A model generated the notes under the pieces. The model worked only from the letters and a program-made list of their open reading frames with translations, ran no database searches and was not told where the DNA came from. Below, in pieces: positions 7,133 to 64,000 of a stretch of 64,000 nucleotides of DNA (positions are counted from its first letter, which is position 1; the number at the start of each line of letters is the position of its first letter). The stretch lies in the IMG/VR virus record IMGVR_UViG_3300042878_001497, positions 96,001 to 160,000 of that record, one strand, 5' to 3'. Source of the DNA: a virus. A program made the position numbers and the translations under genes.

Positions 7133-8051
7133 AAAAATTTTTATCACCGGCGGAGCAGGGTACCTGGGCCGAAATCTTGTCGAGAGGTATTACACTGATA
7201 ATGAAATAACAGTGTACTCTAGAGACGAAGCAAAGCACTACTACCTTAAAAAAGAGTTCCCAAACATTAATTGCGTCGTAGGAGACGTTCGCAACTACGA
7301 CTTGCTTAGAAGAGCTTCCGCCGGACATACTATTGGGATTTTTGCTGCATCTTTAAAACAGATTGAAGCTGTAGATCAGAATGTAGAAGAAGGAGTACGA
7401 GTGATTGTAGATGGAGCTATTAATTCTAGAAGAGTAGCAGAAGAGAATAACTTTAAAGCAGCTTGCTTTATCTCTTCAGATAAATCTAGAGCAGCTACAA
7501 CCCTGTACGGTGCTATGAAGTTTGTAGCAGGAGAAGCTTTTATTGTAAACGCAGAGAAGTCTAACGTTAAGCTTTCAACTGCTATCTATGGTAACGTACT
7601 AAACTCAACCGGTTCGATTATTCCTTTGATGTGGGATGCAATTAAGAAAGGTTATAAACTTACTCTGTACTCTCCTGAGATGACTCGCTTTATGATCGAT
7701 ATCGAGCAAGCTATCGACCTTATAGAAGCAGGACTACAGGAAACTGGTTATAATGTTATACCTAATTTAAAGGCTTTTAAGGTAAGAGATCTATTTGAAA
7801 TTTATGCTGAAAAGTTTGGATTAGAATATAAACTCGGCACACCACGCATCTCAGAGAAGCTACATGAAATGATGGTATCTAAGGAGGAAAGACCTCGTAC
7901 GTTCTACAACAAGGACAACGATACTTACTACATGCACTACAAAGACATCTCAGACAGACAAGTAAGCTGGGAAGAATTTACAAGCGATCAAGTAGCAGTA
8001 AGTAAGCAGGAACTTGAAGATATTCTACAACACTATAATTACTTTCAATGA
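7122..8051 (+). CDS. UDP-GlcNAc 4,6-dehydratase (PseB/FnlA/CapD family)
   Basis: TGGAGYLG, YSRDEAK, GDVR, ISSDKS, YGAMK, YGNVLNSTGSIIP, MTRF, EKLHE. ATG at 7122. Confidence 0.88.
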   Translation: MKGEKIFITGGAGYLGRNLVERYYTDNEITVYSRDEAKHYYLKKEFPNINCVVGDVRNYDLLRRASAGHTIGIFAASLKQIEAVDQNVEEGVRVIVDGAINSRRVAEENNFKAACFISSDKSRAATTLYGAMKFVAGEAFIVNAEKSNVKLSTAIYGNVLNSTGSIIPLMWDAIKKGYKLTLYSPEMTRFMIDIEQAIDLIEAGLQETGYNVIPNLKAFKVRDLFEIYAEKFGLEYKLGTPRISEKLHEMMVSKEERPRTFYNKDNDTYYMHYKDISDRQVSWEEFTSDQVAVSKQELEDILQHYNYFQ

Positions 8052-8767
8052 ACGTTTTAGTGCTAGGGCATAAAGGCATGCTTGGACATATGGTTTCCGA
8101 GTACCTCTCTAATAATGGAGTTACAGTTACTGTTACTCCTTTCCGCTACTTAACTCCTGATTTTGCTGATGCAGTAACTTCCTTTAAAGGAGAGTATATT
8201 ATTAACTGTATTGGAGCTATTCCTCAACGGACTAAAGACTTTTCTATCAACGAAGATCTTCCTACCTGGTTAGATATTCTAGCAAATACTAGAGTTATAC
8301 ACCCTGGAACTGATTGTGAAGTAGACGAAGATGTTTACGGCGTATCTAAAAGAAAAGCTAGAGACTTTATTATTGAAAAAGGAACACGTACTAAGATACT
8401 CAAAACATCTATCATAGGACCTGAATTAGACTCTAAAGTTAGTTTACTTGAATGGTTTTTAAATAGCGAGAACTCAGTAGGAGGCTACACCAAAGCTATG
8501 TGGAGCGGCATTACAACTTTAGAATGGGCTAAACAATGTTATAAACTAATGCAGGATTGGGATAGCTACAAAGTAGAAAATACTATTGAAAGTACTTGCC
8601 TCTCTAAATTTGATTTACTATCTTTGATTAAAGAAGTATTTAGTAAAGATATTGAAATCGTACCAAACTCTTCAGTAGAAGTAAATAAATGCCTCGTAGG
8701 AGAGATAAAAACAAAATCAATTAAAGAGCAGCTCATTGAGCTAAAAGAATACTATTATGATAGTTGA
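8048..8767 (+). CDS. RmlD-like NDP-4-keto-6-deoxysugar reductase
   Basis: LGHKGMLG, IINCIG, YGVSK, TSIIGPE, WSGITTLE. Confidence 0.8.
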   Translation: MNVLVLGHKGMLGHMVSEYLSNNGVTVTVTPFRYLTPDFADAVTSFKGEYIINCIGAIPQRTKDFSINEDLPTWLDILANTRVIHPGTDCEVDEDVYGVSKRKARDFIIEKGTRTKILKTSIIGPELDSKVSLLEWFLNSENSVGGYTKAMWSGITTLEWAKQCYKLMQDWDSYKVENTIESTCLSKFDLLSLIKEVFSKDIEIVPNSSVEVNKCLVGEIKTKSIKEQLIELKEYYYDS

Positions 8768-9689
8768 CCTAAACCCAGAGTTTGGCTATGAACTTGTATG
8801 TGCAGCTCCTTATGCGTACTGGCTTAAAGAGCAAGGAGAGTATGTTAAGGTAATAACAAGCAAAGGAATGAAACCTTTCTACTGGTTTTGTGACGAAGTA
8901 GAAGAGAAGTATACAACTAGGTCTGTAGATAATTCCTCTAACGGAGTACAGAATCTACCTAACAGCTGGATACATCATAATGCTCTAGCTATTTTCGGGA
9001 AAGACTATAGCCTACTTACTGAAGAAGAACAGAAGCAAGCCAACGGATGGTTAGATTACTCTCAATGGGTAGCACCTCCTTATGCTGAGAAGTATTACAA
9101 GAAAGATACACCTGCTTTGAGTAACTATGTTATTATCTCAAATAGGTTTAACTTAGAACACGGGCAGACACCTATTGGGTACTTTGATATAGAGAGTCTG
9201 TATATAATGTTTAATCTTTTAACTGAGAAAGGTTATAACATTATCTATAAACGACCTCGTAATACAGAGTTTGCTACCGATCCTAATGAGCTACAGAATA
9301 GAGATATCTTAGCTAATGTAGAAGGTCAAGGAGTAATTACTGATTATCAGCTTACTGAATACTTTGAAAATGTATACCTATTCGATGATATTGTTAACCA
9401 GGTAGGAGGTACATACAATGAAGCTCAGTTAGCAATATACTCTAGTGCCGAAGGATTTATATCTATGGGTGGAGGCTCAAGCATACTTTGCAGCTACTTT
9501 AACAAACCTGTTATTATTTACGTTAACACTTCTAAAGATATTAGACCGGGTTATTTTGAAGGAGAATCTTACTTCAATAAATTATCTAAAGCAAAGGTAG
9601 TACCTGTAGTTGATACCTTAGACGAAATAGTTAAGAGAGGTTATCGAGATTACTCTAAGGTATTTGAATCTATTAAAGAAGTATTGTAA
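8757..9689 (+). CDS. putative glycosyltransferase/sugar-modifying protein
   Basis: EFGYEL N-terminus and QLAIYSSAEGFISMGGG GT-B-like C-terminus; cluster context. Confidence 0.5.
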   Translation: MIVDLNPEFGYELVCAAPYAYWLKEQGEYVKVITSKGMKPFYWFCDEVEEKYTTRSVDNSSNGVQNLPNSWIHHNALAIFGKDYSLLTEEEQKQANGWLDYSQWVAPPYAEKYYKKDTPALSNYVIISNRFNLEHGQTPIGYFDIESLYIMFNLLTEKGYNIIYKRPRNTEFATDPNELQNRDILANVEGQGVITDYQLTEYFENVYLFDDIVNQVGGTYNEAQLAIYSSAEGFISMGGGSSILCSYFNKPVIIYVNTSKDIRPGYFEGESYFNKLSKAKVVPVVDTLDEIVKRGYRDYSKVFESIKEVL

Positions 9690-10528
9690 TGAAAGTTTTA
9701 GTAACAGGAGGAGCAGGATTTGTTGGTACAAATTTAATCAAGAGACTTCTTGAAGAAGGTCATGAAGTAGTTTCTATTGATAATTACAGCACTGGCCTGG
9801 AGAGCAATCACCAAGACGGAGCAGAGTACCTGAACTATGATATCAGAAATATCACCAGCTACGATTGGATCAAGCCTGAGTTTGTTTTCCATATGGCTGC
9901 CATTGCTCGTATTCAACCTTCATTTGAAAAGCCTCAAGACTATTTTGAAGTTAATGCACTAGGTACAATGAGGTTAGTAGATTGGTGTGCTAAATCAGGA
10001 GTACCCGTTGTGTATGCAGGTTCATCTTCTAAGCATAGTGGAAGGTACAAAAATCCTTACACTTTTTCAAAAGATTTAGGAGAAGATATAATCAAACTAT
10101 ACCAGCAACACTACCAACTAAAAGCTTCAATTGCGAGGTTTTACAACGTTTACGGACCTAATCAATTAACAGAAGGAGGTTATACAACTTTAATTGGTAG
10201 ATGGATTAATAGTTGGTACAAGCAAGAGAAGTTCGTAATTTATGGCGATGGAGAACAACGCAGAGACTTCACACACGTCGATGATATTGTTGATGCTCTA
10301 ACACTAGTTATGTACAAGCAGACTTACGGATACGAATTTGAGCTGGGAAGAGGTAAAAATTACTCTGTAAACGAAGTACTACAAATGTTCCAACAGACTG
10401 CCGAGTATTTCCCAGCACGCCCAGGCGAAGCCTTAACTACCCTGAATACAGATAATACTGCTAGAGAAGTTCTAGGATGGAAACCTACCCGCAACCTTAC
10501 AGATTACCTAAAAGAAGTTATTAAATGA
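9689..10528 (+). CDS. NAD-dependent nucleotide-sugar epimerase/dehydratase
   Basis: TGGAGFVG, YTFSK, RFYNVYG, GDGEQRRDFTHVDD. Confidence 0.92.
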   Translation: MKVLVTGGAGFVGTNLIKRLLEEGHEVVSIDNYSTGLESNHQDGAEYLNYDIRNITSYDWIKPEFVFHMAAIARIQPSFEKPQDYFEVNALGTMRLVDWCAKSGVPVVYAGSSSKHSGRYKNPYTFSKDLGEDIIKLYQQHYQLKASIARFYNVYGPNQLTEGGYTTLIGRWINSWYKQEKFVIYGDGEQRRDFTHVDDIVDALTLVMYKQTYGYEFELGRGKNYSVNEVLQMFQQTAEYFPARPGEALTTLNTDNTAREVLGWKPTRNLTDYLKEVIK

Positions 10529-11703
10529 AAATTAGCTTAATACAGCCAAGCCGTAATAATCTTAAGTACCTTAAGTGGTCTTATGAATCAATTAGAAAAA
10601 ATCAAGGAGAGCACGAGATTGAAATTTGTGTAGCTGACGATGCTAGTACAGACGGAACGTGGGCATGGTGTGTAGAGACGGAGAAAAAAGATCCTAACTT
10701 TAAATGGATTCGTAACCAAGGTCCGGAAAGATTAGGGCATACTATTTTATACGACCGTTTAATTAATAATGTAGCAACTGCAGATGTAGCGATGATCTAC
10801 CATGCTGATATGTACTTATGTCCAGGTGCTATTTCTGCTATTGAGAAACATATTAAGCCAGGTGTAATTGTATCTCTAACTCGAATTGAGCCACCACTAC
10901 ACCCTCCAGGACCAGAAAAGGTTTTAGCTAACTTTGGTACTGAGCCTGAAGAGTTTAACGAAGAGGCTTTCTTAAACTGGTATAGTAAGCTAGAGGTGCA
11001 GCAAGCTACAGAAGGTGTTTTTGCTCCCTGGGCTTTCTACCGCAAAGACTTCCAGAAGATTGGAGGACACGACCCTTTATATGCTCCGCAATCAAAAGAA
11101 GACTCCGATATTTTTAACCGCTTTCACCTAGACGGAGTTAAATTTGTGCAGACTTGGGAAGGACACGTATACCATATGACCTGCAGAGGGTCTAGGTTTA
11201 ATCCTACCTTGACAACTCCAGGTAAAAATAGTAGCGAGTGGGAAGCTCAAAATATGAGATCTACTCGTAATTTTATTCGGAAGTGGGGACATTTTGTAAA
11301 ACATGATAGTATGATGAAACCAATTGTATCTCCTAAGTACGACATTGGTATTAAAGTCACAAATTGTACCAGTGAATTATTAGAGCTTCTTGAACCCTGG
11401 TGTTCAACAATTCTGATCGATGATGAGATGCAGGTACTAACTACTCACTACTTGGATAAAGAACAGCATAACACTCAATATAATCTTGCAGAGAAAATCA
11501 AAACAACTCCGTTCGATACCTTACAAAATGAAATCATACTAACTGTGGATAAAAATACTTTTACTGAATATGACTTTCAAGTACTGCAACAGTTACCGGA
11601 GATTATCCAAATGAATGGAAACCCAGGTACATATACCGTAAGTAGTATGTCTTTAGAAATTAGTAAGATGAACGAATATCAGAATAGTTTAATTAACTTA
11701 TAG
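10525..11703 (+). CDS. glycosyltransferase family 2
   Basis: VADDASTDGT, YHADM, IGGHDPLY..EDSD, YHMTCRGSR. Paralogous to 6227..7132. Confidence 0.88.
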   Translation: MKISLIQPSRNNLKYLKWSYESIRKNQGEHEIEICVADDASTDGTWAWCVETEKKDPNFKWIRNQGPERLGHTILYDRLINNVATADVAMIYHADMYLCPGAISAIEKHIKPGVIVSLTRIEPPLHPPGPEKVLANFGTEPEEFNEEAFLNWYSKLEVQQATEGVFAPWAFYRKDFQKIGGHDPLYAPQSKEDSDIFNRFHLDGVKFVQTWEGHVYHMTCRGSRFNPTLTTPGKNSSEWEAQNMRSTRNFIRKWGHFVKHDSMMKPIVSPKYDIGIKVTNCTSELLELLEPWCSTILIDDEMQVLTTHYLDKEQHNTQYNLAEKIKTTPFDTLQNEIILTVDKNTFTEYDFQVLQQLPEIIQMNGNPGTYTVSSMSLEISKMNEYQNSLINL

Positions 11704-11707
11704 ACAA

Positions 11708-11842
11708 ATGGGCAAGATTCATTTGCAAGATCTAGACCGCTACCAGGAAGAAGCACGTCCTTACCAGCCGATCAAGACAAATAAGAAGAAAAAAGTAGGT
11801 CCTATTTATAAAAAGGACGACGATCAGTTGGATCGAAACTAA
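11708..11842 (+). CDS. small hypothetical protein (44 aa, not in ORF track)
   Basis: Hand translation MGKIHLQDLDRYQEEARPYQPIKTNKKKKVGPIYKKDDDQLDRN; fills the gap after the upstream stop. Confidence 0.5.
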   Translation: MGKIHLQDLDRYQEEARPYQPIKTNKKKKVGPIYKKDDDQLDRN

Positions 11843-11859
11843 CTTCTTCTTATATTTAA
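11803..11859 (+). promoter_or_regulatory. tandem late-type (TATTTATA, 11803) and early-type (GTTG-N20-TATATTTAA, 11827) promoters
   Basis: Both recurring motifs lie upstream of ATG 11863. Confidence 0.65.
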
Positions 11860-11862
11860 AGC

Positions 11863-12204
11863 ATGAAAGAGCTACTCTTAAAAGAAATCCAAAACGTAAT
11901 TGCTGAAGCCACTAAAGTAAACTTTAAGGGTAAGCAGTTTGTACTTAAGGTGGGTGTTAACGAAGATCCAAACAAAAAAGGAATCAAAGTACAATTCATT
12001 CCTGCTGATATGTCTCCTATCAATCCTACCGAGCAGAATGAAATTGCAATGGCATTAGCTGAAAAGCTTGATACAGGTCTTAAGCAGTACGGTATGCAAG
12101 TAGAGAGAGACAGAGAGCTTAAAGACAAATCAATCGTAGGCTTCTTCATCTACATCGAATATGTAGATAAAATTATCCGTCAAGCATTAGGAACTGGAGC
12201 TTAA
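11863..12204 (+). CDS. hypothetical protein with LxE-type leader
   Basis: Begins MKELLLKEIQNVIAEA. Confidence 0.7.
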   Translation: MKELLLKEIQNVIAEATKVNFKGKQFVLKVGVNEDPNKKGIKVQFIPADMSPINPTEQNEIAMALAEKLDTGLKQYGMQVERDRELKDKSIVGFFIYIEYVDKIIRQALGTGA

Positions 12205-12218
12205 CCTAACTTACTTTT

Positions 12219-12374
12219 ATGAAAAGATTCTCTTTCTACAGTCGAACAGATAGTAGCCAGGAGGCTATTGGATCTACTTTTACATTTAACCGCCTTGCTG
12301 CTGCTAGGTACTTTGCAGAAAGAAAACATTTACCGCTTAAGAGCTTCTTAAGCCTATTTAAAGTCACTAGATGA
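12219..12374 (+). CDS. small hypothetical protein (51 aa, not in ORF track)
   Basis: MKRFSFYSRTDSSQEAIG...LFKVTR; stop overlaps the next ATG (ATGA). Confidence 0.6.
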   Translation: MKRFSFYSRTDSSQEAIGSTFTFNRLAAARYFAERKHLPLKSFLSLFKVTR

Positions 12375-12775
12375 ATCCTAAGGAAATACTTAGACGAATA
12401 CTAAAAGAACAGTTACCTTTGAAGTACCGAATAAAAGAGGTACCTCGAAATAAAGAAGCTATGCATAAAGAATTATTTATAGAAATACTTAAGCTGTTAA
12501 AAGAAATCGACGATCGAACAGACTTTGTAGCTTCCGAAATTGGAATGGATATTGCAGCTTACGAAGATAAGTTCTTTAGAGTTATCCACAACTTAATGAG
12601 AATGACCTTTAACAGGGAACAAGTTTTTCTAATCGAGCTGTACTTGAATGAAATCGACTACAACGAAAAAGAAGAATGGGATGGATGCATCTCAGTAACT
12701 GTTGGTAAAAAAGAGCAGAAGATTGCATTCCGCACCCCAGAAGATGTTTGGGAAGCTATTCAGAAATTTAAATAA
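12371..12775 (+). CDS. hypothetical protein
   Basis: 134 aa ORF in operon. Confidence 0.7.
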   Translation: MNPKEILRRILKEQLPLKYRIKEVPRNKEAMHKELFIEILKLLKEIDDRTDFVASEIGMDIAAYEDKFFRVIHNLMRMTFNREQVFLIELYLNEIDYNEKEEWDGCISVTVGKKEQKIAFRTPEDVWEAIQKFK

Positions 12776-12777
12776 AA

Positions 12778-12810
12778 GTTGGATCCTAACCAACTTCTTG
12801 CTATCTTTAG
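12778..12810 (+). promoter_or_regulatory. early-type promoter GTTG-N20-TATCTTTAG
   Basis: Exact motif and spacing, upstream of ATG 12827. Confidence 0.8.
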
Positions 12811-12826
12811 GTAAATAAATAAAAAC

Positions 12827-13219
12827 ATGGATAAAAGGTTCTGTACTGTGTGTGGGGATGAGATTAATCCCTTGCGTGTTAAGGCTCTGCCTGAAACTAA
12901 GACTTGTATTAATCACTCTACTGTAGGAGCGAAACGAGGTCGTATTCTCACTTTAGGAGAAGGAGATCATACTTACAATGAGATTGAAATTCTTGACGAA
13001 GAAACCTACCGCAAGGTAGTAGCTATAGAGTTAGGTGTGGATCGTCTAGCAGAAGAGATGCCTGAGATTCAAAACTACGATCAAACTCTGGTTGCTGATG
13101 ATACTCGTGCATTGAAAGAGAAAGCAGAGAAGTTTTTGGATGATGAAGAAGATGTAAAACTTCTAGAAGATCCAGATGAAGTAATTGAAGACTCAGAAGA
13201 AGAAGAGGAGGAAGAATAG
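12827..13219 (+). CDS. DksA/TraR-type zinc-finger protein with acidic tail
   Basis: CTVCGDEINPLRVKALPETKTCINH fits the DksA/TraR finger pattern; poly-Glu C-terminus. Confidence 0.75.
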   Translation: MDKRFCTVCGDEINPLRVKALPETKTCINHSTVGAKRGRILTLGEGDHTYNEIEILDEETYRKVVAIELGVDRLAEEMPEIQNYDQTLVADDTRALKEKAEKFLDDEEDVKLLEDPDEVIEDSEEEEEEE

Positions 13220-13866
13220 TGGAGGAAAGAAAGAGAGGGAGACCGAGTAAGATACTCCTCAGAGAGGATATCGAGCGTGCAATCCGGATGACTAAATCCA
13301 ATAAGGCTGCCGCTCGATACCTTCACTGCTCCTTTCCTCATTACAAAAAGTACGCCAACCTCTTCAAGGCAGAAGATGGAAGGACGCTTTTTGAGACACA
13401 TCTCAATCAAGCCGGTAAAGGAGTTCCCAAGTTTCTAACAGGAAGAGCTAAACAAGCTCCTTTGAAAGAGATCTTAGACGGAACGTTCCCAGTAGAACAT
13501 TTTAAGCCAGCTAAGATCAAGGCAGCTCTAATTTCAGAAGGGTACCTAGCCGAGCAGTGTAATAGATGTGACTTTGGAGAAGCTAGATTGCTTGACGGTA
13601 AAGTACCTCTCATTCTTACTTTCAAAGATAAGAATAAACATAACTACCATCGAGATAACATCGAGCTACTTTGTTATAACTGCTCCTTTCTCTATGCTGC
13701 TTCTCCTATTTCCGATGATCAGGTAGAACAGATGGAGGATTATGTAGAGCTGCAAGTAAAAGACTATGATTGGGAGATCGATCAAGCACATATCGATCAC
13801 CTAAAGGAGTTAGGACTGTGGGAAGATAATAAAAAACCTGGTGAGGAATTTATATCTCGGCAATGA
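13219..13866 (+). CDS. HNH-fold zinc-binding protein, possibly catalytically degenerate
   Basis: CNRC...LILTFKDKNKHNYHRDNIELLCYNC; N-terminal KRGRPSK and helical region. GTG start. Confidence 0.65.
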   Translation: MEERKRGRPSKILLREDIERAIRMTKSNKAAARYLHCSFPHYKKYANLFKAEDGRTLFETHLNQAGKGVPKFLTGRAKQAPLKEILDGTFPVEHFKPAKIKAALISEGYLAEQCNRCDFGEARLLDGKVPLILTFKDKNKHNYHRDNIELLCYNCSFLYAASPISDDQVEQMEDYVELQVKDYDWEIDQAHIDHLKELGLWEDNKKPGEEFISRQ

Positions 13867-44116: not shown

Positions 44117-44142
44117 GCTATTTATAAAGAGCCTATCTTTAG
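44110..44142 (+). promoter_or_regulatory. nested promoters: late TATTTATA inside the spacer of an early GTTG-N20-TATCTTTAG
   Basis: GTTG at 44110, TATTTATA at 44119, TATCTTTAG at 44134. Confidence 0.75.
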
Positions 44143-44160: not shown

Positions 44161-45072
44161 ATGGGAGGAAACGTATTCGGAACCACAGACAAGATTAAGA
44201 GGGAGGACATCAAGCCTACCCTCTTAAACTTTTTAAAAGAATTCAAGAGATTATTTCCTCAAGCAGAACCTCACTTCCGTCAAATGCAGACCCTAGGATC
44301 TGTAGGTAAGAAGGAGGTTTCTGGAGATATCGATTTAGCGATTTCCGATAAAAGCTTTGATAAGATTCAGGACTGGGGTCTAGATCAGCAGCACGTCCAG
44401 GAGCTTTTCGAACTCTTCAAAAAGAGATCAAGAACAGCCTCGGAAGAGCAGCTTATGAAAAGAGCTGTGATTGTTGCTATTGCTGAAAAGATCCAAGATG
44501 CTGATACCGACCTTGCTGTCGACGTAAAAGGTTCAGCTTCGGGTGCATTATTCCTGCAAGCTCCTCAATACAACGAAGCAGGAGAGCAGCTAGATAGCAA
44601 CGTTCAAATCGATATAAATGTCGGGGATGTTGACTGGCTTAAATTTGCTTACTACTCTAGCGTTTATTCTGGAAATGTGAAAGGATTGCACCGTACCCAG
44701 TTACTGGTTGCCCTATTTGCAAATAAAGGATATATCTTCTCTCACAACTACGGAGTTAAGAATAGAGACACCCAGGAAATAGAAGCTAAATCTCCAACTG
44801 AAGCTATCGAGCTTTTAAACAAGCTCTACAAAGCAGACTTTACTTCCGAGATTCTAGAGAACTACTTCAGTGTTATGGAGGCTCTCAAAAACAATCTAAG
44901 TGAGCAGGATCTAAATAAGGTCTACGATATCTACCTCAAGATTCTTGACAGCACTAGAGCCGACATTCCGGAAGATTTACAGGACTACTGGATTGCAAAT
45001 CAGGAGAGACTGCAGCTCAAAGGTAAGTTCCTTCCAGACGATTCTAATTTAGTAAAATATAAAGTACAATGA
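44161..45072 (+). CDS. Pol-beta superfamily nucleotidyltransferase
   Basis: LGSVGKKEVSGDIDL (GS..DxD) and third Asp in VQIDI. Confidence 0.8.
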   Translation: MGGNVFGTTDKIKREDIKPTLLNFLKEFKRLFPQAEPHFRQMQTLGSVGKKEVSGDIDLAISDKSFDKIQDWGLDQQHVQELFELFKKRSRTASEEQLMKRAVIVAIAEKIQDADTDLAVDVKGSASGALFLQAPQYNEAGEQLDSNVQIDINVGDVDWLKFAYYSSVYSGNVKGLHRTQLLVALFANKGYIFSHNYGVKNRDTQEIEAKSPTEAIELLNKLYKADFTSEILENYFSVMEALKNNLSEQDLNKVYDIYLKILDSTRADIPEDLQDYWIANQERLQLKGKFLPDDSNLVKYKVQ

Positions 45073-47924
45073 GCGGTGTAGCCGGAGGAAATAGAATTAA
45101 AAAGCAAGACGTCCAAGATACGTTTAATGATTTTGAGAATAAAGTTCTCAAGAAAATCCCTGGTTACAAAGCTGCAAGTCTATCTGGAAGCGTTAAAGCT
45201 GGCACTAAAGCCGACTTCGGAGACTTAGACGTTATTAGTACCTTTGAATACGGTGATAAGAAGCTTGCCAAGCAAGCAATCATCGACACGGTATCTAAGA
45301 TGCCAGACTCTCTAATTATGCCCTTCCAAAGCGATCGGTATAAAGGTAAGAAATTTTATAACTCCGGAGAGATTATCTCGGTACTCTACCCAATCAAAGG
45401 AGCACCGGGCGAAACTATTCAAGTTGATGTTATGGTTTCTCTTTCTGAAACCGAACACCAGTTTAAGAACTCGTTTTTAGACCTACCTGCCGAAGTGCAG
45501 GGTCTAATCTTAGGACTAGTTAAGACTGCATTAGTAGAGCAGAAGCCGGCCGAAGTATTCGCCCGTATGGGAATTAAAAATCTACCCCCCTTAGAAGCAA
45601 ATCAGGAATACGAATTTAACCTTTCTAGCGTAAATCTAACTCTCAGAAAAGTAACCCTAGACAACTTTAAAGAAGTAGCTAGAGAGGAAATCTGGAAATC
45701 AAATAACTGGTCTGACGTACAGAACCTATTAAAGGATTTTGATCTTAATCAGCCCTTTGAAAAGCTTTTAGACCAGATAACAAGATCGCTTACCAATCCT
45801 AGAAGTAAGAACCGCGTAGCAGGAATCTTCCGCTCGATGGTATCGGTTAAATCCGGTGAAGTAGGTACTCCTAAAGGAGATAATAAAGAGAAGGCTTTGT
45901 CACAAGTTGCTCAAACTCTAACAGAAGGAGAAGAAAGCACCATCGGACTTTACGGAGGTGGATTCAAACCCCCTCACCGCGGTCACTTCCACATCGCTAA
46001 AGAGCTAGCCAAGGACGTAGATTCAATTAAGATCTACATCGGTGGTACAATCAGAAAAGGAGAAATAATTACAGCTCAGCAGTCAAAAGATATCTGGGGG
46101 ATCTATGCCAAGTATTTAGGTGTGCCCACTGAAATTGAAATAGCACCGGTCACCCCTATCCTTTCAATCTACCAGGAAATCGAAGCTAACAAAAAACAAG
46201 ACTACTTAGTAGGTTCCTCTACTGACCCGGCAGATCTAGCTAAGTTTAAAGCTCTACAGCTCAATAAGGATAATCTCTACGATAGAGCAAAATTAAAAAT
46301 TGTGTCAACGATCAACGAAGAAAAGCTATCTGCTACTACAATTAGAACAGATATGGACTACCTAAAAGCAGGTCAATGGATGCCTGAAGAACTTTCAGCA
46401 GACGATAAAAAAACAGTACTAGGAATCCTAAAAGCAACCCCAGAGTACAAAATGGCAGAAGCCATCGACGATGTATTCAACAGCTTCCTAGGAGAAGGTA
46501 CAAAAGAAAAAGCAGAAAAGAAAGAAGAAGAAACTTCTGAAGTAACCATGGGAACTCCCATGGCACCGATTGCCGTAGTACCTTCTGAGATTCGTCAGAA
46601 AATGCAAAACCTTACCGCATACTTCCAGAAGCTTGCCCCGGACGATGTGATCGTAGACTTTAACGGTCAATCGATCGTTATTACCCCGATGTACTACAAC
46701 AAAGCTCTACCGATGGGACCAGCTGACTACACTCCCGAGCAGAAACCTATCGACGAATACCAGGATACTGCAGCAGCTATCAACTACGTACCTTATATCG
46801 CTGGTATTCTAGAGCATATGATTAAGAAGGGTATGACGGTATTACCGCTGCCGGAGATCAAAACTAGAGAAGATGAAGAAAACGCTGCTAACGTTTTTGG
46901 TAGGACTGCTTACTACGATCCTACTAAGAAAGAAGTCGTGCTGTATGTAACAGGACGTCACCCTAAAGATGTACTGCGTTCATTCTGCCATGAGATGATT
47001 CATCACATGCAGAACCTAGAAGATCGTCTACCAGCTTTTACTACTACCAACACCCAGGAAGATTCTACATTAAATGATATTGAAAAGGAAGCTCATTTCC
47101 TTGGTAGCATGCTCATGAGAGAGTACGAAGATTCGATTAAGAAGGAAGATAGCCTGGAAGAAGGTACCAAATACCGTTCAATCGTTGCTGACGTTAGAAG
47201 AGCTGTTAACGATGCTCTTAATGTCTTAATTAGTGGTAAAAAGCTAAAAGGATATAACGTTAAGACCAAAAGAGAGCCTACTAAAAAGGATTTAGAGTTT
47301 GCTGAAAAATACGGAATGTCTCCTTTAGGAGCTATGCTTTACAACGAATATCAATCAGCATACCTGGGAGAGTTTACAAGCAAAAGCGAGAAAGGAACTA
47401 AGACAGAAGACGGCAAGCCGGTAAATGTAGGGGTAAGTTTAAAATTTGCTCAAACCGACCAAGTAGCACCGGGCAAATTCCACATCGACGGTGAAGCCGG
47501 TTCCGATGAAGGAGAAATCGATATCATACTAGCTTTTAATCCGGCTGACGGGACTAATATGCTTCAACAAATCCAACCAATCTTAACCGATCTTATTCGT
47601 CACGAAACCGAACACCTAACCCAATCCGGGGTAGAAGTTCGCCCGGATAAGTGGATGAGAAAGGACGAAGCTAGAAGAAGAGCTATTCGTCAGAACCCGG
47701 AGATATGGTACAAGTATTACATGCTTCCTAAAGAAGTAGATGCTAACATCCAGGGCTTGCATACAAAGTCAAAGTACGAGAAGAAAGACTTCCAGTCAAC
47801 CGTTGACCAGTACCTAGAAGACCTAGTACAGGGTGAAATTATAACAGTTGCAAATAAGCAAAAAATTTACGATCTTTGGAAGAGCAGAATTCCCCAAATC
47901 GGAGGTATTCCAAACTTAAAATAA
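45069..47924 (+). CDS. multidomain protein: Pol-beta NTase + HxGH nucleotidyltransferase + two HExxH zincin-like domains
   Basis: SGSVKAGTKADFGDLDV/IQVDV; GGGFKPPHRGH..LSATTIR; HEMIH..EKEA; HETEH..EVDA. Confidence 0.8.
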   Translation: MSGVAGGNRIKKQDVQDTFNDFENKVLKKIPGYKAASLSGSVKAGTKADFGDLDVISTFEYGDKKLAKQAIIDTVSKMPDSLIMPFQSDRYKGKKFYNSGEIISVLYPIKGAPGETIQVDVMVSLSETEHQFKNSFLDLPAEVQGLILGLVKTALVEQKPAEVFARMGIKNLPPLEANQEYEFNLSSVNLTLRKVTLDNFKEVAREEIWKSNNWSDVQNLLKDFDLNQPFEKLLDQITRSLTNPRSKNRVAGIFRSMVSVKSGEVGTPKGDNKEKALSQVAQTLTEGEESTIGLYGGGFKPPHRGHFHIAKELAKDVDSIKIYIGGTIRKGEIITAQQSKDIWGIYAKYLGVPTEIEIAPVTPILSIYQEIEANKKQDYLVGSSTDPADLAKFKALQLNKDNLYDRAKLKIVSTINEEKLSATTIRTDMDYLKAGQWMPEELSADDKKTVLGILKATPEYKMAEAIDDVFNSFLGEGTKEKAEKKEEETSEVTMGTPMAPIAVVPSEIRQKMQNLTAYFQKLAPDDVIVDFNGQSIVITPMYYNKALPMGPADYTPEQKPIDEYQDTAAAINYVPYIAGILEHMIKKGMTVLPLPEIKTREDEENAANVFGRTAYYDPTKKEVVLYVTGRHPKDVLRSFCHEMIHHMQNLEDRLPAFTTTNTQEDSTLNDIEKEAHFLGSMLMREYEDSIKKEDSLEEGTKYRSIVADVRRAVNDALNVLISGKKLKGYNVKTKREPTKKDLEFAEKYGMSPLGAMLYNEYQSAYLGEFTSKSEKGTKTEDGKPVNVGVSLKFAQTDQVAPGKFHIDGEAGSDEGEIDIILAFNPADGTNMLQQIQPILTDLIRHETEHLTQSGVEVRPDKWMRKDEARRRAIRQNPEIWYKYYMLPKEVDANIQGLHTKSKYEKKDFQSTVDQYLEDLVQGEIITVANKQKIYDLWKSRIPQIGGIPNLK

Positions 47925-47925
47925 A

Positions 47926-48486
47926 ATGGGCAAGTTAGCTGACTTACTACTTACTGAAGAGGAGCAAAATCCAAAACCAAAAGGCAAACTATTCTGTGAT
48001 ATGGATGGCGTGCTTACGGATTTTGTAGGCCGCTTTGACCATTACTTCGGTATGCATCCAAACGAGTACAAGGAGAAAAAAGGTGACGGAGGCTTCTGGA
48101 GCGTCATTGCACCTATCGGTCAGATCTTTTGGGAAGGAATGGAATGGACCCCGCACGGCCTACAGCTATGGGAACACATTAGAGATTTTAACCCAACTCT
48201 CTTAACTGCCCCCTCTGAAGAACAGTCTTCAAGAGACGGTAAGGTAGAATGGGCAAATAGGGAATTAGAACCTATTCCTCCGATCATCTTCCGTCCGGCT
48301 AAAGAAAAGCATCTAGAGTGTACAGGACCCGATGATATCCTAATCGACGATAGGGAAGATACCATTCAGAGATGGATAGATGCAGGAGGTGTAGGAATCT
48401 ACCATCCAGAAAACGGAGACCCATCCAACGTTATTATAAGATTAGAAAAGTTAGGTTATGTCAAGCCATCTGAAGAAAGAATTTGA
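47926..48486 (+). CDS. HAD phosphatase, 5'(3')-nucleotidase (NT5C)-like
   Basis: FCDMDGVLTDF, LLTAP, KVEW, ILIDDR; leader MGKLADLLLTE. Confidence 0.85.
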   Translation: MGKLADLLLTEEEQNPKPKGKLFCDMDGVLTDFVGRFDHYFGMHPNEYKEKKGDGGFWSVIAPIGQIFWEGMEWTPHGLQLWEHIRDFNPTLLTAPSEEQSSRDGKVEWANRELEPIPPIIFRPAKEKHLECTGPDDILIDDREDTIQRWIDAGGVGIYHPENGDPSNVIIRLEKLGYVKPSEERI

Positions 48487-49050: not shown

Positions 49051-49980
49051 ATGCTTTTAACTGAGTCAAAAGTTACTGCGGTATTAACAGAAGGTCTTCG
49101 CTACCATTTGCAGACCGGTACTCCCTTATACGAGAACATCTACCGTCCAGGATCAGAACAATACTTTACTACCATCCGTCAGGCACGTCTTCTTATGAAT
49201 GAAGGTCTACTACGGTGCCTCTGCCTAGAAGATATGGAACTTCTATTTGAAACCGAGGTAGGAGAGTACGCAGAGTTTGAAGGCAAGCAAGTACCTTTAG
49301 ATTTCCCAATGATTGGAGAAATTAGCTTTATAATTCCGGATGCAGAAGCAACCTGGCAGCAAGCCTCTACCAATCCTCAGATCCAGAAGATGGGTGAGGA
49401 GCAGTGGAAGAAGCTTTCCGACATCTCAAAAGCAGCCGGAGGATTTGGATATACAGCCAAATACACAGACATCGATCCAGTGATGGCTGATCTATCAGGA
49501 GAAGAAACAGTTACTTTTTCAGACGACGATCAAATCCAGATGCCAGTAGTGCTTAAGTACCAGGAAGCCGGTCAAGTAAAATACGAAATCGTAGTAGGAG
49601 AAGATATCCTACATAGCCTCATTTCTTCAGGCAAGGATACAGACCCGGACATCTGGGTAGTTGATATCACAAGCGAGGCTCTAGCAGAGGCTAAGTACCG
49701 TGGATCAGAAGTAGCTCTAAACAAACCCAAAAGAGGAGGACCTAAGAAATTCTACGTTTATACTCGTAACCCTAAGACAGGAAAGATCATCAAAGTCAAC
49801 TTCGGAGGTACTACAGGACTGACTGCCAAGATCAACAATCCTGAAGCACGCCGGAACTTCGCCAGCCGTCATAACTGCGCTACTAAAAACGACAAAACCA
49901 AGCCCGGGTACTGGTCTTGCAGACTACCAAGGTACGCCAAGCTTATCGGACTCAAATCAAGCTTTGGAGGATTCTGGTGA
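49051..49980 (+). CDS. late multi-segment protein with basic C-terminal domain
   Basis: Begins MLLTES; acidic middle; LAEA followed by basic KKFYVY..VNFG..RRNFASRHNC..YWSC. Confidence 0.7.
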   Translation: MLLTESKVTAVLTEGLRYHLQTGTPLYENIYRPGSEQYFTTIRQARLLMNEGLLRCLCLEDMELLFETEVGEYAEFEGKQVPLDFPMIGEISFIIPDAEATWQQASTNPQIQKMGEEQWKKLSDISKAAGGFGYTAKYTDIDPVMADLSGEETVTFSDDDQIQMPVVLKYQEAGQVKYEIVVGEDILHSLISSGKDTDPDIWVVDITSEALAEAKYRGSEVALNKPKRGGPKKFYVYTRNPKTGKIIKVNFGGTTGLTAKINNPEARRNFASRHNCATKNDKTKPGYWSCRLPRYAKLIGLKSSFGGFW

Positions 49981-59619: not shown

Positions 59620-59834
59620 AAAAGAGCGAATTCATCGAAGTACTAAGAGAGCTCATTCAACAGGAGCTCAACGAGGTGAACGTAACAGGAGCTATTGCAC
59701 CTATCACAACTCCTTTCGCTTTTTCAAAAGGAAAAAAAGACAACAGAGCCGTTAAGACAATGAAGGGCTTTGGTTACACTAAAGCAGAAAGACCAAAGAG
59801 ACCCTCACACACTAAAATGTTTGATTTCAAATGA
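59616..59834 (+). CDS. small head-module protein with LxE leader
   Basis: Begins MKKSEFIEVLRELIQQELNEV. Confidence 0.7.
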   Translation: MKKSEFIEVLRELIQQELNEVNVTGAIAPITTPFAFSKGKKDNRAVKTMKGFGYTKAERPKRPSHTKMFDFK

Positions 59835-60691
59835 GAACACTACAGGAAAAATATAATGCTGTTCTAGAAGGAAACTTCTCAAAAGAGCAATTTAGGAGAG
59901 ATGCAGTTATGCAGCTTCCTAACGTTGTTTCTAAGTTTAACAGCTTTGAAGATATGACAGCCATCCTCAAGAACAGAGGTATGATTGCTGAAGCTAAAAA
60001 AGAAGAAGTAACAGCCTACAAAAAGCCAGAAGTAGATCCTATCGATTTAATTGCCCCGGACCTTTTAGATGACGGCATCAGAGCTGAACTAGAAGCTAAG
60101 GGCATCGAAGGAACTCCTTCTGAAGAAGAGTACACAAAAGCAAAAGAGAAAGCAGCTAAGAATCTAGCAAAAGATCCTCTTCATTATAAGAATGCCCAGA
60201 CCATGCCTGAGATGGGTGAGAAAATGGAGAAAGCAAAGCTTCAAGAAGGTGACACTCAAAATACTTTCTTAAGAGACCGTGAAAGACTAAGAGATGAACT
60301 TTCAGACAAGGAAGTAGCTGCTGCAGTAGCAGATGAGCCTAACAATGTAGGTAAAGCATTCAGAGATATGGTAATGCAAGAGCCTGAGACGTATGTGAAA
60401 ATGTCTAAAGACGAGCTTATTGCTGCTTTCAAAGACTACAAAGAGAACTACTACATCGATCAAGAAGCTCAAGAGCGAATGGATGCTATTGCAGGTCAGC
60501 CTGACTTCCAAGAAGGAGCAGAAGACGTTAATGTAGATGATTTTGAAGCTAACAGAACCAATACTAGAGATTTCGCTTCAAGCCATCCAAAAAAGAAAGA
60601 CGACGGCACTTACGACATCAAAGACATAATGAAAGAAGCCCAGCTCAAAGAAGCAGTAAAGGCTTTAATTAAGAAGACTCTAGAATCATAA
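59831..60691 (+). CDS. head-module (core/internal) protein
   Basis: Many L/I-x-E sites (LQEK, IAEA, LQEG, LKEA); AAKNLAKDPLHY. Confidence 0.65.
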   Translation: MRTLQEKYNAVLEGNFSKEQFRRDAVMQLPNVVSKFNSFEDMTAILKNRGMIAEAKKEEVTAYKKPEVDPIDLIAPDLLDDGIRAELEAKGIEGTPSEEEYTKAKEKAAKNLAKDPLHYKNAQTMPEMGEKMEKAKLQEGDTQNTFLRDRERLRDELSDKEVAAAVADEPNNVGKAFRDMVMQEPETYVKMSKDELIAAFKDYKENYYIDQEAQERMDAIAGQPDFQEGAEDVNVDDFEANRTNTRDFASSHPKKKDDGTYDIKDIMKEAQLKEAVKALIKKTLES

Positions 60692-60693
60692 TC

Positions 60694-61272
60694 ATGGCAA
60701 ATCTCTTAATTGAATATACCCCCTTCCGTCCTACGATCACCGAGTCCGTCAAAAGACCCGGTATCTTTGAGGTGACAGGTGTTATGCAGAGAGCCGGAAA
60801 GAAGAACCAAAACGGAAGAATCTACGAAAGAGCTATCCTCGATAGAGAGGTTAAGAAGTACATGGAAGCTTTCGTTAAAGTAGGTAACGCATACGGTGAA
60901 CTAGATCACCCAGAATCTCCAATTGTATCACTAAAGAATGCTTCACACGTTGTGAAGGATTTATGGTGGGATGGAGATGATCTAATGGGTAAGGTTGAGC
61001 TACTCAACACCCCGGCCGGTAACATCGTAAAAGAAATCATCAAAGGCGGACACACAATCGGTATCTCTTCTAGAGGTACAGGTTCAGTCCAGCCAATTGG
61101 TGAGAACACCCTAATGGTTAAAGACGATTTTGAATTGGTGTGCTGGGATTTCGTATCGAATCCTTCTACACACGGAGCATTTCTAAACCCCGTCTCTTTA
61201 AATGAAACAAAGCAAGTTGTAGACCGCTACAGCAAGCTTCATAACATTATCGGAGACATTTTAAGAGCATAA
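60694..61272 (+). CDS. prohead protease (gp21-like)
   Basis: NQNGRIY, GELDHP, GISSRGTGS, WDFVSNPSTHGA. Confidence 0.95.
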   Translation: MANLLIEYTPFRPTITESVKRPGIFEVTGVMQRAGKKNQNGRIYERAILDREVKKYMEAFVKVGNAYGELDHPESPIVSLKNASHVVKDLWWDGDDLMGKVELLNTPAGNIVKEIIKGGHTIGISSRGTGSVQPIGENTLMVKDDFELVCWDFVSNPSTHGAFLNPVSLNETKQVVDRYSKLHNIIGDILRA

Positions 61273-61295
61273 AACTAAAAAAAAAGTAAAAGAAG

Positions 61296-61592
61296 ATGGA
61301 AAACTTTGATTTAAAAAAATTCTTAGTAGAGAATAAGCTTACTGATAATTCTAAGGAATTATTAGAATATGATATTAAATCGACCGGTGAGGAAGAAATT
61401 ATCTACGAAGTAGAGGTACTTGATGAAGACGGTAAAATAAAGTCCTATACTAAACTTAGCGCCGAGAAGTTTGACCTGTACATAAAAAATAGCCCCCTAC
61501 CAGTAACAATCAAATTCAAAAACAGAACAGTAAGAGCTGTTACGAAAATCACAGGAGTCACTGACGATATGGGTCGTCCGATGAACCTATAG
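61296..61592 (+). CDS. late protein with MENFDLKKFLVE leader
   Basis: 98 aa; LVE and LLE sites near the N-terminus. Confidence 0.7.
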   Translation: MENFDLKKFLVENKLTDNSKELLEYDIKSTGEEEIIYEVEVLDEDGKIKSYTKLSAEKFDLYIKNSPLPVTIKFKNRTVRAVTKITGVTDDMGRPMNL

Positions 61593-61625
61593 TAAACCCA
61601 AACCCTAATTTTAATTATATTTGTT

Positions 61626-61799
61626 ATGACATCACAAGAGTTATTCGAAAAAATTGATGCCCTGTACCAGGAATTCGTTTCTAATCACAACAAAGAGACT
61701 AAGGCCGCTAAAGCAAGAGCCCGTAAGAATCTAGGAGAGATTAAAAAACTTGTTACCGAATACAGAAAAGTTTCAACTGCTGAAAGTAAGGCAAAGTAA
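61626..61799 (+). CDS. histone H1-like (Hc1-type) small basic protein (57 aa, not in ORF track)
   Basis: MTSQELFEKID...KAAKARARKNLGEIKKLVTEYRKVS. Confidence 0.7.
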   Translation: MTSQELFEKIDALYQEFVSNHNKETKAAKARARKNLGEIKKLVTEYRKVSTAESKAK

Positions 61800-61921
61800 T
61801 GGCAAAGTCAGCCAAGAGAAGACAAGCCGCTTTCAAGCCCTTAAGTAGAAAATCTCAGGTTAAATTCAAAAAAAGAATGCAGACCAATAACGAGATCTTA
61901 AGCAAGTTAGAAGCTAAATAA
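61799..61921 (+). CDS. 40 aa basic peptide (not in ORF track)
   Basis: MAKSAKRRQAAFKPLSRKSQVKFKKRMQTNNEILSKLEAK; TAATG overlap. Confidence 0.55.
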   Translation: MAKSAKRRQAAFKPLSRKSQVKFKKRMQTNNEILSKLEAK

Positions 61922-61946
61922 AACTCCCTCGGGCGCTACCTTGGGC

Positions 61947-61980
61947 ACCTCGGTCGAAAGGCCGGGGTTTTTTTGTTTTT
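61947..61980 (+). terminator. intrinsic terminator
   Basis: ACCTCGGTC-GAAA-GGCCGGGGT followed by a T tract. Confidence 0.85.
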
Positions 61981-62094
61981 GTAACTCATATGTATTTATA
62001 TACGAATATATCGTCACAGATACGATATCGAATGTAAACAAACTACATTACACCCCCACAAATTTAATGGGTGTACAAATCCAAAGTTAACAAC

Positions 62095-63450
62095 ATGGCT
62101 AACAAAGATTTATTTAAGCAGGCTATTGCCGATGCTAAGTCTATTCGTGAAGCTGCCATTGCTAATGCTAAACTTGCTTTGGAAGAGTCTCTAACTCCTC
62201 AATTGAAAGAGCTTCTAGCTCAACGTCTCGCTGAGATGGAAGAAGAGGAAGCACCTGCCGCTGTAATTTCTGAAGAAGAAGTAACAGAGGAAGTAGCTGA
62301 AGAGTCTCTTGAAGAAGCAATCGGACCAGACGGCCTACGGGCTGTTGCCGAAGCAGAAGAAGAAGGCGCTGAAGAAGAAGGCGAAGAAGAAGGTGAAGAA
62401 GCTGGCGAAGAAGCCGAGGGTGACTCTGAAGAATCAGAGGACGAGGCAGAAGAAGAGGTTGGTGAGATGAGCGTTGATGACCTTAAGGACTTAATCCGCG
62501 ACGTACTTATGCAAGTAATGGGCGACAAGGAAGCAGGACAAGAGGACGAACTAGAGGCTGGTGCTGAGGAAATGGGTGCTGAAGATATGACCGCTGTAAC
62601 TGATACAGAGATCAATATCGACGAACTTATGGCCGAGCTAGCTCTTATCAATGACCCAGAAGGACCTACAGCACACGGTAACATTCCGGAGGCTAAGAAA
62701 GAAGCAGATCCACTTGCTGAAGCTGCAGTAAACGAATTAATGGGCTACCTAAAAGCCGAAGTTAAGCAGACTGTAGGTGCTTTTGCTGAACGCAAAGGTA
62801 TGACTCTACAAGAGGTGATGACGGAGATGGCTAAGTACGGTGCATCCGTTGATATGAAAGAAGTTGCTAAGATGCTTGAAGCTGCTCACGGATTAGGTGA
62901 GGCTGCTTGCAACAGAGTAATGGAAAGACTTATCACAACTCCTGTAGCTACTGCTCCCGCAATGGAAGAAAGCGCTGAGGATGTAATTGAAAAAATTAAA
63001 AGTATGGGCAAAGACGCTGCTAAAGCAGTCGTTAAAGCAGTTACTGATTTTATTGACTACACACCACTTGATCCAAGAAACCGATACGAAAGCGCTGACA
63101 TACAGGAAGCTCTATCTACCATCGAAACTCTCCGTAACGAATTAAACGAGACTAACTTGCTTAACGCTAAGTTACTCTACGTAAACAAAGTGTTCAAGGC
63201 TAACAACTTGACTGAAGGTCAGAAAGCAAACGTAATCGCTACTTTCGATAAGGCTGAAACAGTTAAGGAAGTTAAGCTAGTATACGAAACAGTTAGTAAC
63301 AACGTTACTGCTGGAGGTAAGAAAGAAGTAGTGAAGGAAGCCAAGGGCTTTGCTTCAGCTGCTGCAGGAATCTCTACCAAGCCAGAAGTAATCACTGAAA
63401 CTAATGCGGCTGTACTGCGTATGCAAAAACTTGCAGGTATTATTAAATAA
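62095..63450 (+). CDS. prohead scaffold/core protein (gp22-like)
   Basis: Acidic coiled coil between protease and capsid genes; many LxE sites; ends MQKLAGI. ATG at 62095 preferred over GTG at 62071. Confidence 0.85.
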   Translation: MANKDLFKQAIADAKSIREAAIANAKLALEESLTPQLKELLAQRLAEMEEEEAPAAVISEEEVTEEVAEESLEEAIGPDGLRAVAEAEEEGAEEEGEEEGEEAGEEAEGDSEESEDEAEEEVGEMSVDDLKDLIRDVLMQVMGDKEAGQEDELEAGAEEMGAEDMTAVTDTEINIDELMAELALINDPEGPTAHGNIPEAKKEADPLAEAAVNELMGYLKAEVKQTVGAFAERKGMTLQEVMTEMAKYGASVDMKEVAKMLEAAHGLGEAACNRVMERLITTPVATAPAMEESAEDVIEKIKSMGKDAAKAVVKAVTDFIDYTPLDPRNRYESADIQEALSTIETLRNELNETNLLNAKLLYVNKVFKANNLTEGQKANVIATFDKAETVKEVKLVYETVSNNVTAGGKKEVVKEAKGFASAAAGISTKPEVITETNAAVLRMQKLAGIIK

Positions 63451-63467: not shown

Positions 63468-64000
63468 ATGGAATTAAATTCTCTTTTAAACGAATCAGCA
63501 CAGGGCTTCAAGTCTCTGCAAGCTGATGCTGCTAGACTCGCTGACAAGTGGTCTGCAACTGGTCTTCTTGAGGGTCTTGGCAACGAGATCGACAAGAACA
63601 ATATGTCTATGATCCTTGAGAACCAGGCAAAACAAATCATCAAGGAATCCAACGCTACCAATGCTAACGGCGGAGCCGAGCAGTGGGCTGGTGTTGCTCT
63701 ACCGCTTGTAAGAAAGGTATTCGCTCAGATCGCTGCTAAAGATTTCGTATCTGTACAGCCTATGAACCTTCCTTCAGGTCTTGTATTCTATCTTGACTTC
63801 AAGTACGGTACTACTGCTAACGGAAGAACTGACGGTGACAATATGTACGGTAACGTATCTACTGCTAACAACAAGATGTCTGTAGACGAGGAAGTTTCTG
63901 GCGGCCTTTACGGTGCTGGTCAATTCGGCTACACTATCAACTCAGCTTCTTTAGCTATCACTCAATCTACTGGTGCTGCTACTTCAGCTTCTATCGGATA
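63468..64000 (+). CDS. major capsid protein (gp23-like), 3'-truncated by the window (not in ORF track)
   Basis: MELNSLLNES...KWSATGLLEGL...MILENQAKQ...LPLVRKVF...VSVQPMNLPSGLVFYLDFKYG. Confidence 0.93.
   Translation, partial: MELNSLLNESAQGFKSLQADAARLADKWSATGLLEGLGNEIDKNNMSMILENQAKQIIKESNATNANGGAEQWAGVALPLVRKVFAQIAAKDFVSVQPMNLPSGLVFYLDFKYGTTANGRTDGDNMYGNVSTANNKMSVDEEVSGGLYGAGQFGYTINSASLAITQSTGAATSASIG

Follow-up and report, generated by a model that had tools for sequence, protein, structure and literature searches.

A multi-enzyme protein of a T4-like marine phage with prohead-protease-type sites at its module joints: most likely a cleaved precursor

The window analysed here, positions 96,001 to 160,000 (64,000 nucleotides) of IMG/VR virus record IMGVR_UViG_3300042878_001497, encodes a 951-residue protein with L-x-E/G motifs at the junctions of its domains (a slash marks the predicted cut). 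The phage character of the window is apparent from the placement of all large open reading frames (ORFs) on one strand and from genes for a terminase (55248), a T4-type portal (56856), a prohead protease (60694) and a major head protein (63468). For this protein of a T4-like marine phage, the most likely reading is that of a precursor cut into separate enzymes. Cutting of its linkers by the phage's own prohead protease, which belongs to the S77 family of T4 gp21, seems to us probable, and we propose tentatively that the cut products are capsid cargo. We infer the cutting, the enzyme responsible and packaging from the sites, their position in linkers, the conservation of the joints, and the protease gene with its co-occurrence in related records.

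In the proposed scheme, the protein would be a late-expressed polyprotein of a PolX-like nucleotidyltransferase (NTase), an NMNAT-like adenylyltransferase, a zincin and a second HExxH domain, each folding independently. The S77 prohead protease would cut after E286, after E476 and/or E491, and after E698, giving the modules as separate proteins; the predicted sizes are about 32, 21, 23-25 and 29 kDa, from a chain of 107 kDa. The likeliest place for this would be the prohead, from which the products would be delivered with the DNA, like T4 Alt and internal proteins. The gene itself would be drawn from a shuffled pool of cargo modules that elsewhere stand alone with short leaders or occur in other fusions.

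Modules, linkers and predicted cut sites

An AlphaFold2 model of the 951-residue protein, built on 90 homologues, had a mean predicted local distance difference test score (pLDDT) of 80.7 and a predicted template modelling score (pTM) of 0.39. A pTM of only 0.39 together with high pLDDT suggests well-folded parts without fixed mutual packing. The predicted modules and sites are as follows, all on the + strand.

45069..47924, +, ORF of the polyprotein (P0001), 951 residues
45072..45917, +, D1 (residues 2-283), Pol-beta/PolX-like NTase, by NTase motif and Foldseek
45918..45929, +, Site 1, L284-T-E286/G287, by motif, with pLDDT <50 at 286-288
45939..46478, +, D2 (residues 291-470), HxGH nucleotidylyltransferase (NMNAT/PPAT-like), by motifs and profile match
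46488..46499, +, Site 2, L474-G-E476/G477, by motif, inside the disordered stretch 470-502
46533..46544, +, Site 2b, T-S-E491/V492, directly before D3, by an invariant Glu
46542..47147, +, D3 (residues 492-693), zincin-like metallopeptidase domain, by HExxH and fold alignment
47154..47165, +, Site 3, L696-E-E698/G699, by motif, with pLDDT <50 at 692-699
47163..47921, +, D4 (residues 699-951), beta-sheet plus helical domain with a second HExxH, by the motif at 845-849

The protein contains three [LIVM]-x-E-G tetrapeptides in total, L-T-E-G, L-G-E-G and L-E-E-G, and L-x-E-G would be expected 0.41 times by composition. They correspond to E286, E476 and E698, the sites that an initial annotation had described at the domain junctions. 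Stretches of pLDDT <50 cover residues 286-288, 462-464, 470-502, 543-569 (a loop in D3), 692-699 and 854-867 (a loop in D4). The inter-domain stretches among them hold all three sites, which are assigned to linkers for that reason; the structure prediction proposed in the initial annotation thus places each of them in a disordered linker and none within a folded domain.

Conservation of the sites was assessed in 121 aligned homologues. Site 1 was h-x-E in 107/107 homologues and Site 3 was h-x-E/G in 119/120, while Site 2 was conserved in the close clade only (48/51). E491 was Glu in 121/121. The linker between D2 and D3 has two candidate sites, E476 and E491, and if both are cut a 15-residue charged spacer (477-491) would be set free. 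The "four enzymes" of the initial annotation are therefore approximate, the activity of D4 also being a prediction.

The evidence for the individual modules differs. D1 carries a G-S...D-L-D NTase motif at residues 39-55 that fits the pattern G-[GS]-x(9-13)-D-x-[DE] of the Pol-beta superfamily, and in Foldseek searches its model matched Pol lambda, Pol beta and bacterial PolX in their palm and thumb (E about 1e-6). By this motif on a predicted palm fold, D1 is a Pol-beta superfamily nucleotidyltransferase. D2 has HxGH at 303-306 and an ISxTxxR-type motif at 420-426 (S-A-T-T-I-R, 421-426); its profile matched NMNAT and PPAT chains, the best being NMNAT 9x6f (E 1e-5). The Pfam score of D2 for CTP_transf_like, 18.4 bits, lies under the gathering cut-off of 21, so the specific NMNAT assignment is a candidate only. 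This sub-threshold match was the only one that the 951-residue protein gave in Pfam, where it matched no family made for polyvalent proteins, zincin family included; a search of PHROGs returned no match.

D3 contains HExxH at 641-645 followed by a conserved downstream Glu. Residues 561-693 aligned in VIA-align with Wss1 (Z 8.5), PprI/IrrE (8.2), SPRTN (8.0) and ArdC (7.0), and this core aligned to zincins only. In D4, a four-stranded sheet precedes the HExxH at 845-849; the VIA-align matches listed, which D3 filled, included none for D4 itself. Foldseek with the D3 plus D4 model returned nothing at E <= 0.001, and the zincin assignment comes from VIA-align and applies to D3. A protein atlas gave weak leads, M78/IrrE for D3 and LPD23 or SprT-like for D4. 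The NTase, HxGH and first HExxH domains named in the initial annotation are thus borne out as D1, D2 and D3; in its fourth domain the HExxH is present, and the fold has no independent match.

Module shuffling and conservation of the joints

Cultured relatives of the protein, searched by tblastn in a phage collection, were confined to four Flavobacterium phage immuto records (43% identity). The immuto homologue is annotated as NMN adenylyltransferase and its neighbours match those in the window: primase, exonuclease, a hypothetical gene, then 5'-nucleotidase. A megablast search of the same collection with 12 kb of the window gave no match. Homologues were otherwise abundant: one search gave 643 of near-equal length, and a second library yielded 2745 cluster representatives (50% identity).

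When architectures were surveyed with one hidden Markov model per module, more than 60 were found among 269 homologues, including D1 alone, D1-D2, D1-D2-D3, D2-D3-D4 without D1, and D1 at the C-terminus of other proteins. About 390 homologues have the modules alone, in other fusion orders, or with further modules added at 476 and about 693, and nearly all of their joints read [LIVM]-x-E followed by G, S or A. The extra modules at Site 2 of close relatives, inserted exactly at residue 476, comprise 87-136 residues and those just upstream of Site 3 comprise 41-161 residues; at both positions the motif is found on both flanks. Five homologues that are 85-92% identical to the 951-residue protein (P0005, P0006, P0017, P0004 and P0041) carry an 87-residue module at 476 and/or a 146-161-residue helical module before 698. 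Inserts in relatives otherwise this similar indicate that modules have been gained or lost at the joints very recently. Inteins or homing elements were considered as the source of the 87-161-residue inserts and rejected, as the joint motif flanks the inserts and one of them is homologous to the window gene at 49051.

The 49051 gene (49051-49980) is a 309-residue ORF that starts M-L-L-T-E and contains four h-x-E[GSA] sites. Its residues 88-226 match the extra module of a 1212-residue polyprotein homologue (P0035, residues 608-745; E 7e-10), which places it in the same module pool.

Joints were also extracted by anchoring solely on the first residues of the downstream module, and unique joints were counted. 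P1 was Glu before D1 in 12/12, before D0 (a further NTase module, described below) in 9/9, before D4 in 82/83 and before D3 in 90/101; P3 was L, I, V or M in 12/12, 9/9, 83/83 and 78/101, respectively. An internal D1 is always preceded by [LIV]-x-E/S-G, and a D1 in first position starts M-S-G. The joint before D4 reads [LMIV]-x-E/G, and that before D3 reads [VIL]-x-E/G or x-x-E/V. Across linkers, domain edges and unmodelled regions the density of h-x-E[GSA] was 7.6 per 1000 residues, against 1.8 in domain interiors (4.2-fold). Boundary windows contained such a site in 10/10 cases for D1, 18/23 for D3 and 3/3 for D4, compared with 5.7% of interior windows; the corresponding count for D2 was 25/49 under the strict P1' set.

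These joints bear on the question of which peptidase would cut them. The initial annotation had named self-processing by the zincin domains as an alternative, in which D3 and/or D4 would cut the linkers in cis or trans. D3 has a zincin fold with an intact HExxH and downstream Glu, no other module is as widely shared in the family, D4 has an HExxH as well, and release of domains by zincins has been proposed for polyvalent proteins (Iyer et al. 2017; PMC5512222). Thirty-eight multi-module homologues lacking any HExxH or HxxEH nevertheless retain the joints, which argues against self-processing. Glu at P1 with an aliphatic P3 is moreover the documented specificity of S77 proteases and recurs in the scaffold and head protein of this phage, and zincin-free stand-alone modules (the HAD nucleotidase and D2) bear leaders ending in the same site. 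We regard cutting by the embedded zincins as quite improbable; a zincin encoded by another gene might still cut in trans.

Stand-alone forms of the modules show where such leaders lie. Stand-alone D1 genes encode 280-300 residues, several stopping right after the Site 1 Glu, and a few have mini-leaders of 4-5 residues that end in the site. Where D2 comes first, the protein opens with about 15 residues of amphipathic leader that end L-L-E, and in many relatives a leader of this D2 type is retained in full between D1 and D2. The D3 domain of stand-alone proteins is preceded by a propeptide of 6-50 residues, in most cases ending x-x-E/G. Stand-alone D4 proteins, of 250-252 residues, share the C-terminal end of the 951-residue protein and open with a 9-residue leader, M-K-L-x-x-L-L-L-E/G, which ends at the Site 3 position and is followed by the start of D4. 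Homologues encoded as separate genes with leaders of their own, which the initial annotation had suggested looking for, were therefore found for D2-first proteins, D3, D4 and the HAD nucleotidase, with a few mini-leaders for D1.

Fusing leader-bearing genes would leave functionless h-x-E in linkers. The sites might thus be relics of fused leaders, or simply the natural end of a module's last helix, in a protein that works uncut. Site 1 lies directly after the last helix of D1 (268-284) in the model, and phage N4 virion RNA polymerase and ArdC, which are polyvalent, are transferred uncut (PMC5512222). This explanation appears rather unlikely, for the Glu does not vary where unrelated modules meet or at either flank of an inserted module, and mini-leaders of 4-5 residues before D1 make sense solely as cleavage sites. 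A further argument against an uncut protein comes from the gene immediately upstream.

44161..45072, +, upstream NTase gene (module D0, 303 residues), whose stop overlaps the start of the 951-residue ORF

Over its whole length the D0 protein shares 35-53% identity with internal modules that stand directly before D1 in 12 homologous polyproteins. Fused D0 modules are preceded by [IL]-x-E/G-G and end in h-x-E/S, at the position where the C-terminal residue of the window D0 protein is Gln. The terminal Gln and the overlap of the stop with the start of the polyprotein indicate a split exactly at the joint, and the Gln of the split form against the Glu of fused forms suggests that Glu is retained only where a joint needs cutting.

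Prohead protease, leaders and the proposed route of the products

The enzyme that would do the cutting in the preferred scheme, cleavage by the S77 prohead protease, is encoded in the head module of the window together with two proteins that carry the same motif.

60694..61272, +, prohead protease, T4 gp21 family (Peptidase_S77), 192 residues; Pfam PF03420, phrog_207
62071..63450, +, acidic scaffold-like protein, 459 residues, with 12 h-x-E[GSA] sites, by site count
63468..63998, +, N-terminus of the major head protein; phrog_138, with h-x-E/S or G after residues 10, 36 and 61

The protease matched PF03420 with E 6e-31 (107.9 bits against a cut-off of 27) and phrog_207 at 1e-49. T4 gp21 cleaves after Glu in L/I-x-E (PMC9026906; PMC12991175), and the window protease has L-I-E at residue 7, which we liken to LIE-9 at the N-terminus of T4 gp21 (PMC9026906). 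The scaffold-like protein has 2.6 sites per 100 residues, against 0.2-0.7 in most ORFs. In T4, processing is blocked when P1 is Asp. S77 was present in 12/12 related viral records holding the head module, a 344-kb phage included. The related records without S77 were fragments; four were tested for a portal and none had one. A 169-kb record (rated 93% complete) without S77 was considered as a counter-example and rejected, because it has no T4-type portal either and the head module is therefore not on that contig.

Two other features of the head region were noted. A 286-residue protein at 59831-60691 has a 13-residue leader ending V-L-E/G and six sites; it and the 62071-63450 product are candidate prohead core or scaffold proteins, and neither matches a Pfam or PHROG family. 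The roughly 800 bases between the protease and the scaffold-like gene (61272-62070) hold small ORFs only (98, 57, 49 and 40 residues).

Packaging is suggested by leaders on neighbouring genes. In T4, a capsid-targeting leader of 10-20 residues ending at a gp21 site brings internal proteins into the prohead (PMC9026906; PMC5694885). Of the ORFs from 41000 on, 12/23 carry near the N-terminus an h-x-E that ends at residues 5-13, where the background is 0.21 (p = 8e-4); the HAD-type gene that adjoins the polyprotein is one of them.

47926..48486, +, downstream HAD-type 5'-nucleotidase gene, with an 11-residue leader ending L-T-E

Eleven homologous polyproteins have this nucleotidase as their C-terminal module, at 34-45% identity, and in one of the eleven the HAD module is joined to D4 through L-N-E/S; a further match, the twelfth, covers just 38 residues. 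As judged from their sequences, the leaders of the late-region ORFs resemble T4 capsid-targeting sequences. Leaders of this kind (5-13 residues, M-K-L-...-h-x-E) were listed for the ORFs at 41817, 47926, 49051, 51087, 51965, 52849, 53412, 59831 and 63468, and also at 23463 and 29870; the 41817 product is a small kinase-like protein.

The timing of expression was approached through a repeated nonamer upstream of the operon.

44118..44126, +, late-promoter-like element CTATTTATA, 35 nt upstream of the operon's first gene

The nonamer CTATTTATA occurs ten times in the window, always on the + strand (7056, 11802, 23445, 27238, 38762, 44118, 49031, 50186, 51714 and 56831), where 1.5 copies would be expected, and 0/100 shuffles reached ten. 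Copies lie mostly 15-40 nt before the start codons of structural and cargo genes, among them the portal gene (56831), tail genes (27238, 38762), the 49051 gene and the polyprotein operon. By analogy with T4 TATAAATA, the element is likely a late promoter of this phage lineage.

One related locus places a multi-module protein among head genes. On a 344,580-base IMG/VR contig from a jumbo phage (L016), positions 7424-13423 encode a 1999-residue protein with a D3-type zincin, an NTase-like part, Zn ribbons and repeat regions, whose joints read h-N-E/G or S. The gene stands in the head cluster, with a tail-fibre-like gene on one side and acidic scaffold-like genes on the other, and the S77 protease gene follows 5 kb downstream. 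Searches for related loci with P0173 gave no viral loci, and those with P0144 gave short contigs only.

Several observations weigh against the preferred scheme. The 951-residue protein starts M-S-G-V-A-G-G, has no h-x-E in its first 25 residues and has no capsid-targeting leader, and about 190/208 of the homologues with D1 first are likewise without an N-terminal leader; entry into the prohead may occur via an internal leader-like helix, given the D2-type leader that many relatives retain between D1 and D2. The gene adjoins primase and exonuclease genes outside the head module, 7-13 kb from the terminase, portal and protease genes. At Site 2b, P3 is the non-canonical Thr here, with V, I or L in most relatives. 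The co-occurrence of S77 discriminates weakly, because it was scored in about a dozen records, all of one broad T4-like lineage. The zincins are intact and may have an effector role or a share in processing. No proteomic or biochemical report of cleavage or virion presence was found for the 951-residue protein or its relatives, immuto included. Finally, a 2026 preprint describes in vivo cutting by T4 gp21 of a disordered L-P-E loop in a cytosolic host protein (PMC12991175), so cutting without packaging is possible.

The last point raises the alternative that S77 cuts the linkers in the cytoplasm late in infection and that the products, unpackaged, act in the producing cell. The missing N-terminal leader, the neighbouring primase, exonuclease and nucleotidase genes and the gp21 preprint all fit such a course. 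There would, however, be little evident gain from freeing nucleotide-handling enzymes only after prohead formation. Leaders like T4 capsid-targeting sequences are present on neighbouring and stand-alone modules, the polyprotein lies within the head gene cluster in the 344-kb relative, and the late-promoter-like element of the operon is common to the portal gene. We judge cytoplasmic cutting without packaging unlikely. The initial annotation had the prohead protease cut one packaged precursor into four enzymes; the junction sites as cleavage sites and the preference for the prohead protease over the zincins stand, and packaging is a step that we infer for a protein without a leader.

On a broader reading, which we offer with some reserve, marine Bacteroidota T4-like phages and their jumbo relatives would have a large and hitherto unrecognised pool of a dozen or more capsid-loaded, injected enzyme modules that switch freely between a gene of their own with a leader and a bead in a polyprotein. 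The members of this pool might include NTases, an NMNAT-like transferase, zincins, a HAD nucleotidase, a kinase and Zn-ribbon modules. What would make the switching free is that either form is trimmed by the prohead protease to identical mature enzymes.

Relation to known systems and significance

The closest parallels are T4 internal proteins IPI-III and Alt, which share with the present case the S77 protease family, the site motif and short leaders, here seen on neighbouring and stand-alone modules. Alt, which is cut at both ends (PMC5694885, PMC9026906), is enzymatic cargo, as the modules here would be. T4 cargo differs in being encoded by separate genes from whose products only terminal propeptides are removed, whereas here the enzymes lie in one chain with sites between them and no N-terminal leader. 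In phiKZ, 201phi2-1 and SPN3US, a gp21-related protease likewise cuts many internal head proteins after Glu, sometimes at several sites per protein (PMC10052503, PMC9026906). There, however, the motif is S/A/G-x-E, and the cuts mainly dismantle long N-terminal propeptides and are not described as parting catalytic domains.

Polyvalent proteins, as defined by Iyer, Burroughs, Anand, de Souza and Aravind in 2017, are large mosaic phage proteins for which injection and proteolytic release of domains were predicted (PMC5512222). The 951-residue protein resembles them in combining disparate enzymatic domains in one chain, a Pol-beta NTase and a zincin included, and in its extensive shuffling; it has at least two disparate domains (the four modules), mosaic architectures among its homologues and a zincin domain (D3). 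In polyvalent proteins processing is attributed mainly to embedded zincins and no cleavage motif was defined (PMC5512222), whereas here a defined motif, which matches the prohead protease, marks every joint and persists without zincins. Their NTase is also of a minimal type from Firmicute elements, in contrast to the 280-residue PolX-like form of D1. Polyproteins of eukaryotic RNA viruses are likewise single products cut at a recurring short motif into several enzymes, by analogy only: the present protein belongs to a tailed phage with double-stranded DNA, its protease has a gene of its own in the head module, and the sequences are unrelated.

Injected, proteolytically released polyvalent proteins and the trimming of leader-bearing cargo by gp21 are thus known already. 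What we have not found described, and what the sequences suggest, is that enzyme modules may be parted by prohead-protease sites and be interchangeable with leader-bearing single genes; the literature searched, whose coverage was incomplete, held no description of enzyme polyproteins cut by a prohead protease.

If the proposed scheme is true, the head-maturation protease would double as a polyprotein processor in phages with double-stranded DNA, with no need for embedded peptidases, a testable alternative to the published idea that zincins process polyvalent proteins. An h-x-E joint together with an S77 protease would become a searchable rule for capsid cargo in uncultured T4-like phages, and the rule would give a role to thousands of unnamed metagenome proteins (2745 representatives at 50% identity). 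Phages could fuse, split and reshuffle injected enzymes and leave the mature products unchanged. With nucleotide- and NAD-related transferases and peptidases as its contents, such cargo would suggest early counter-defence or metabolic takeover by abundant ocean phages.

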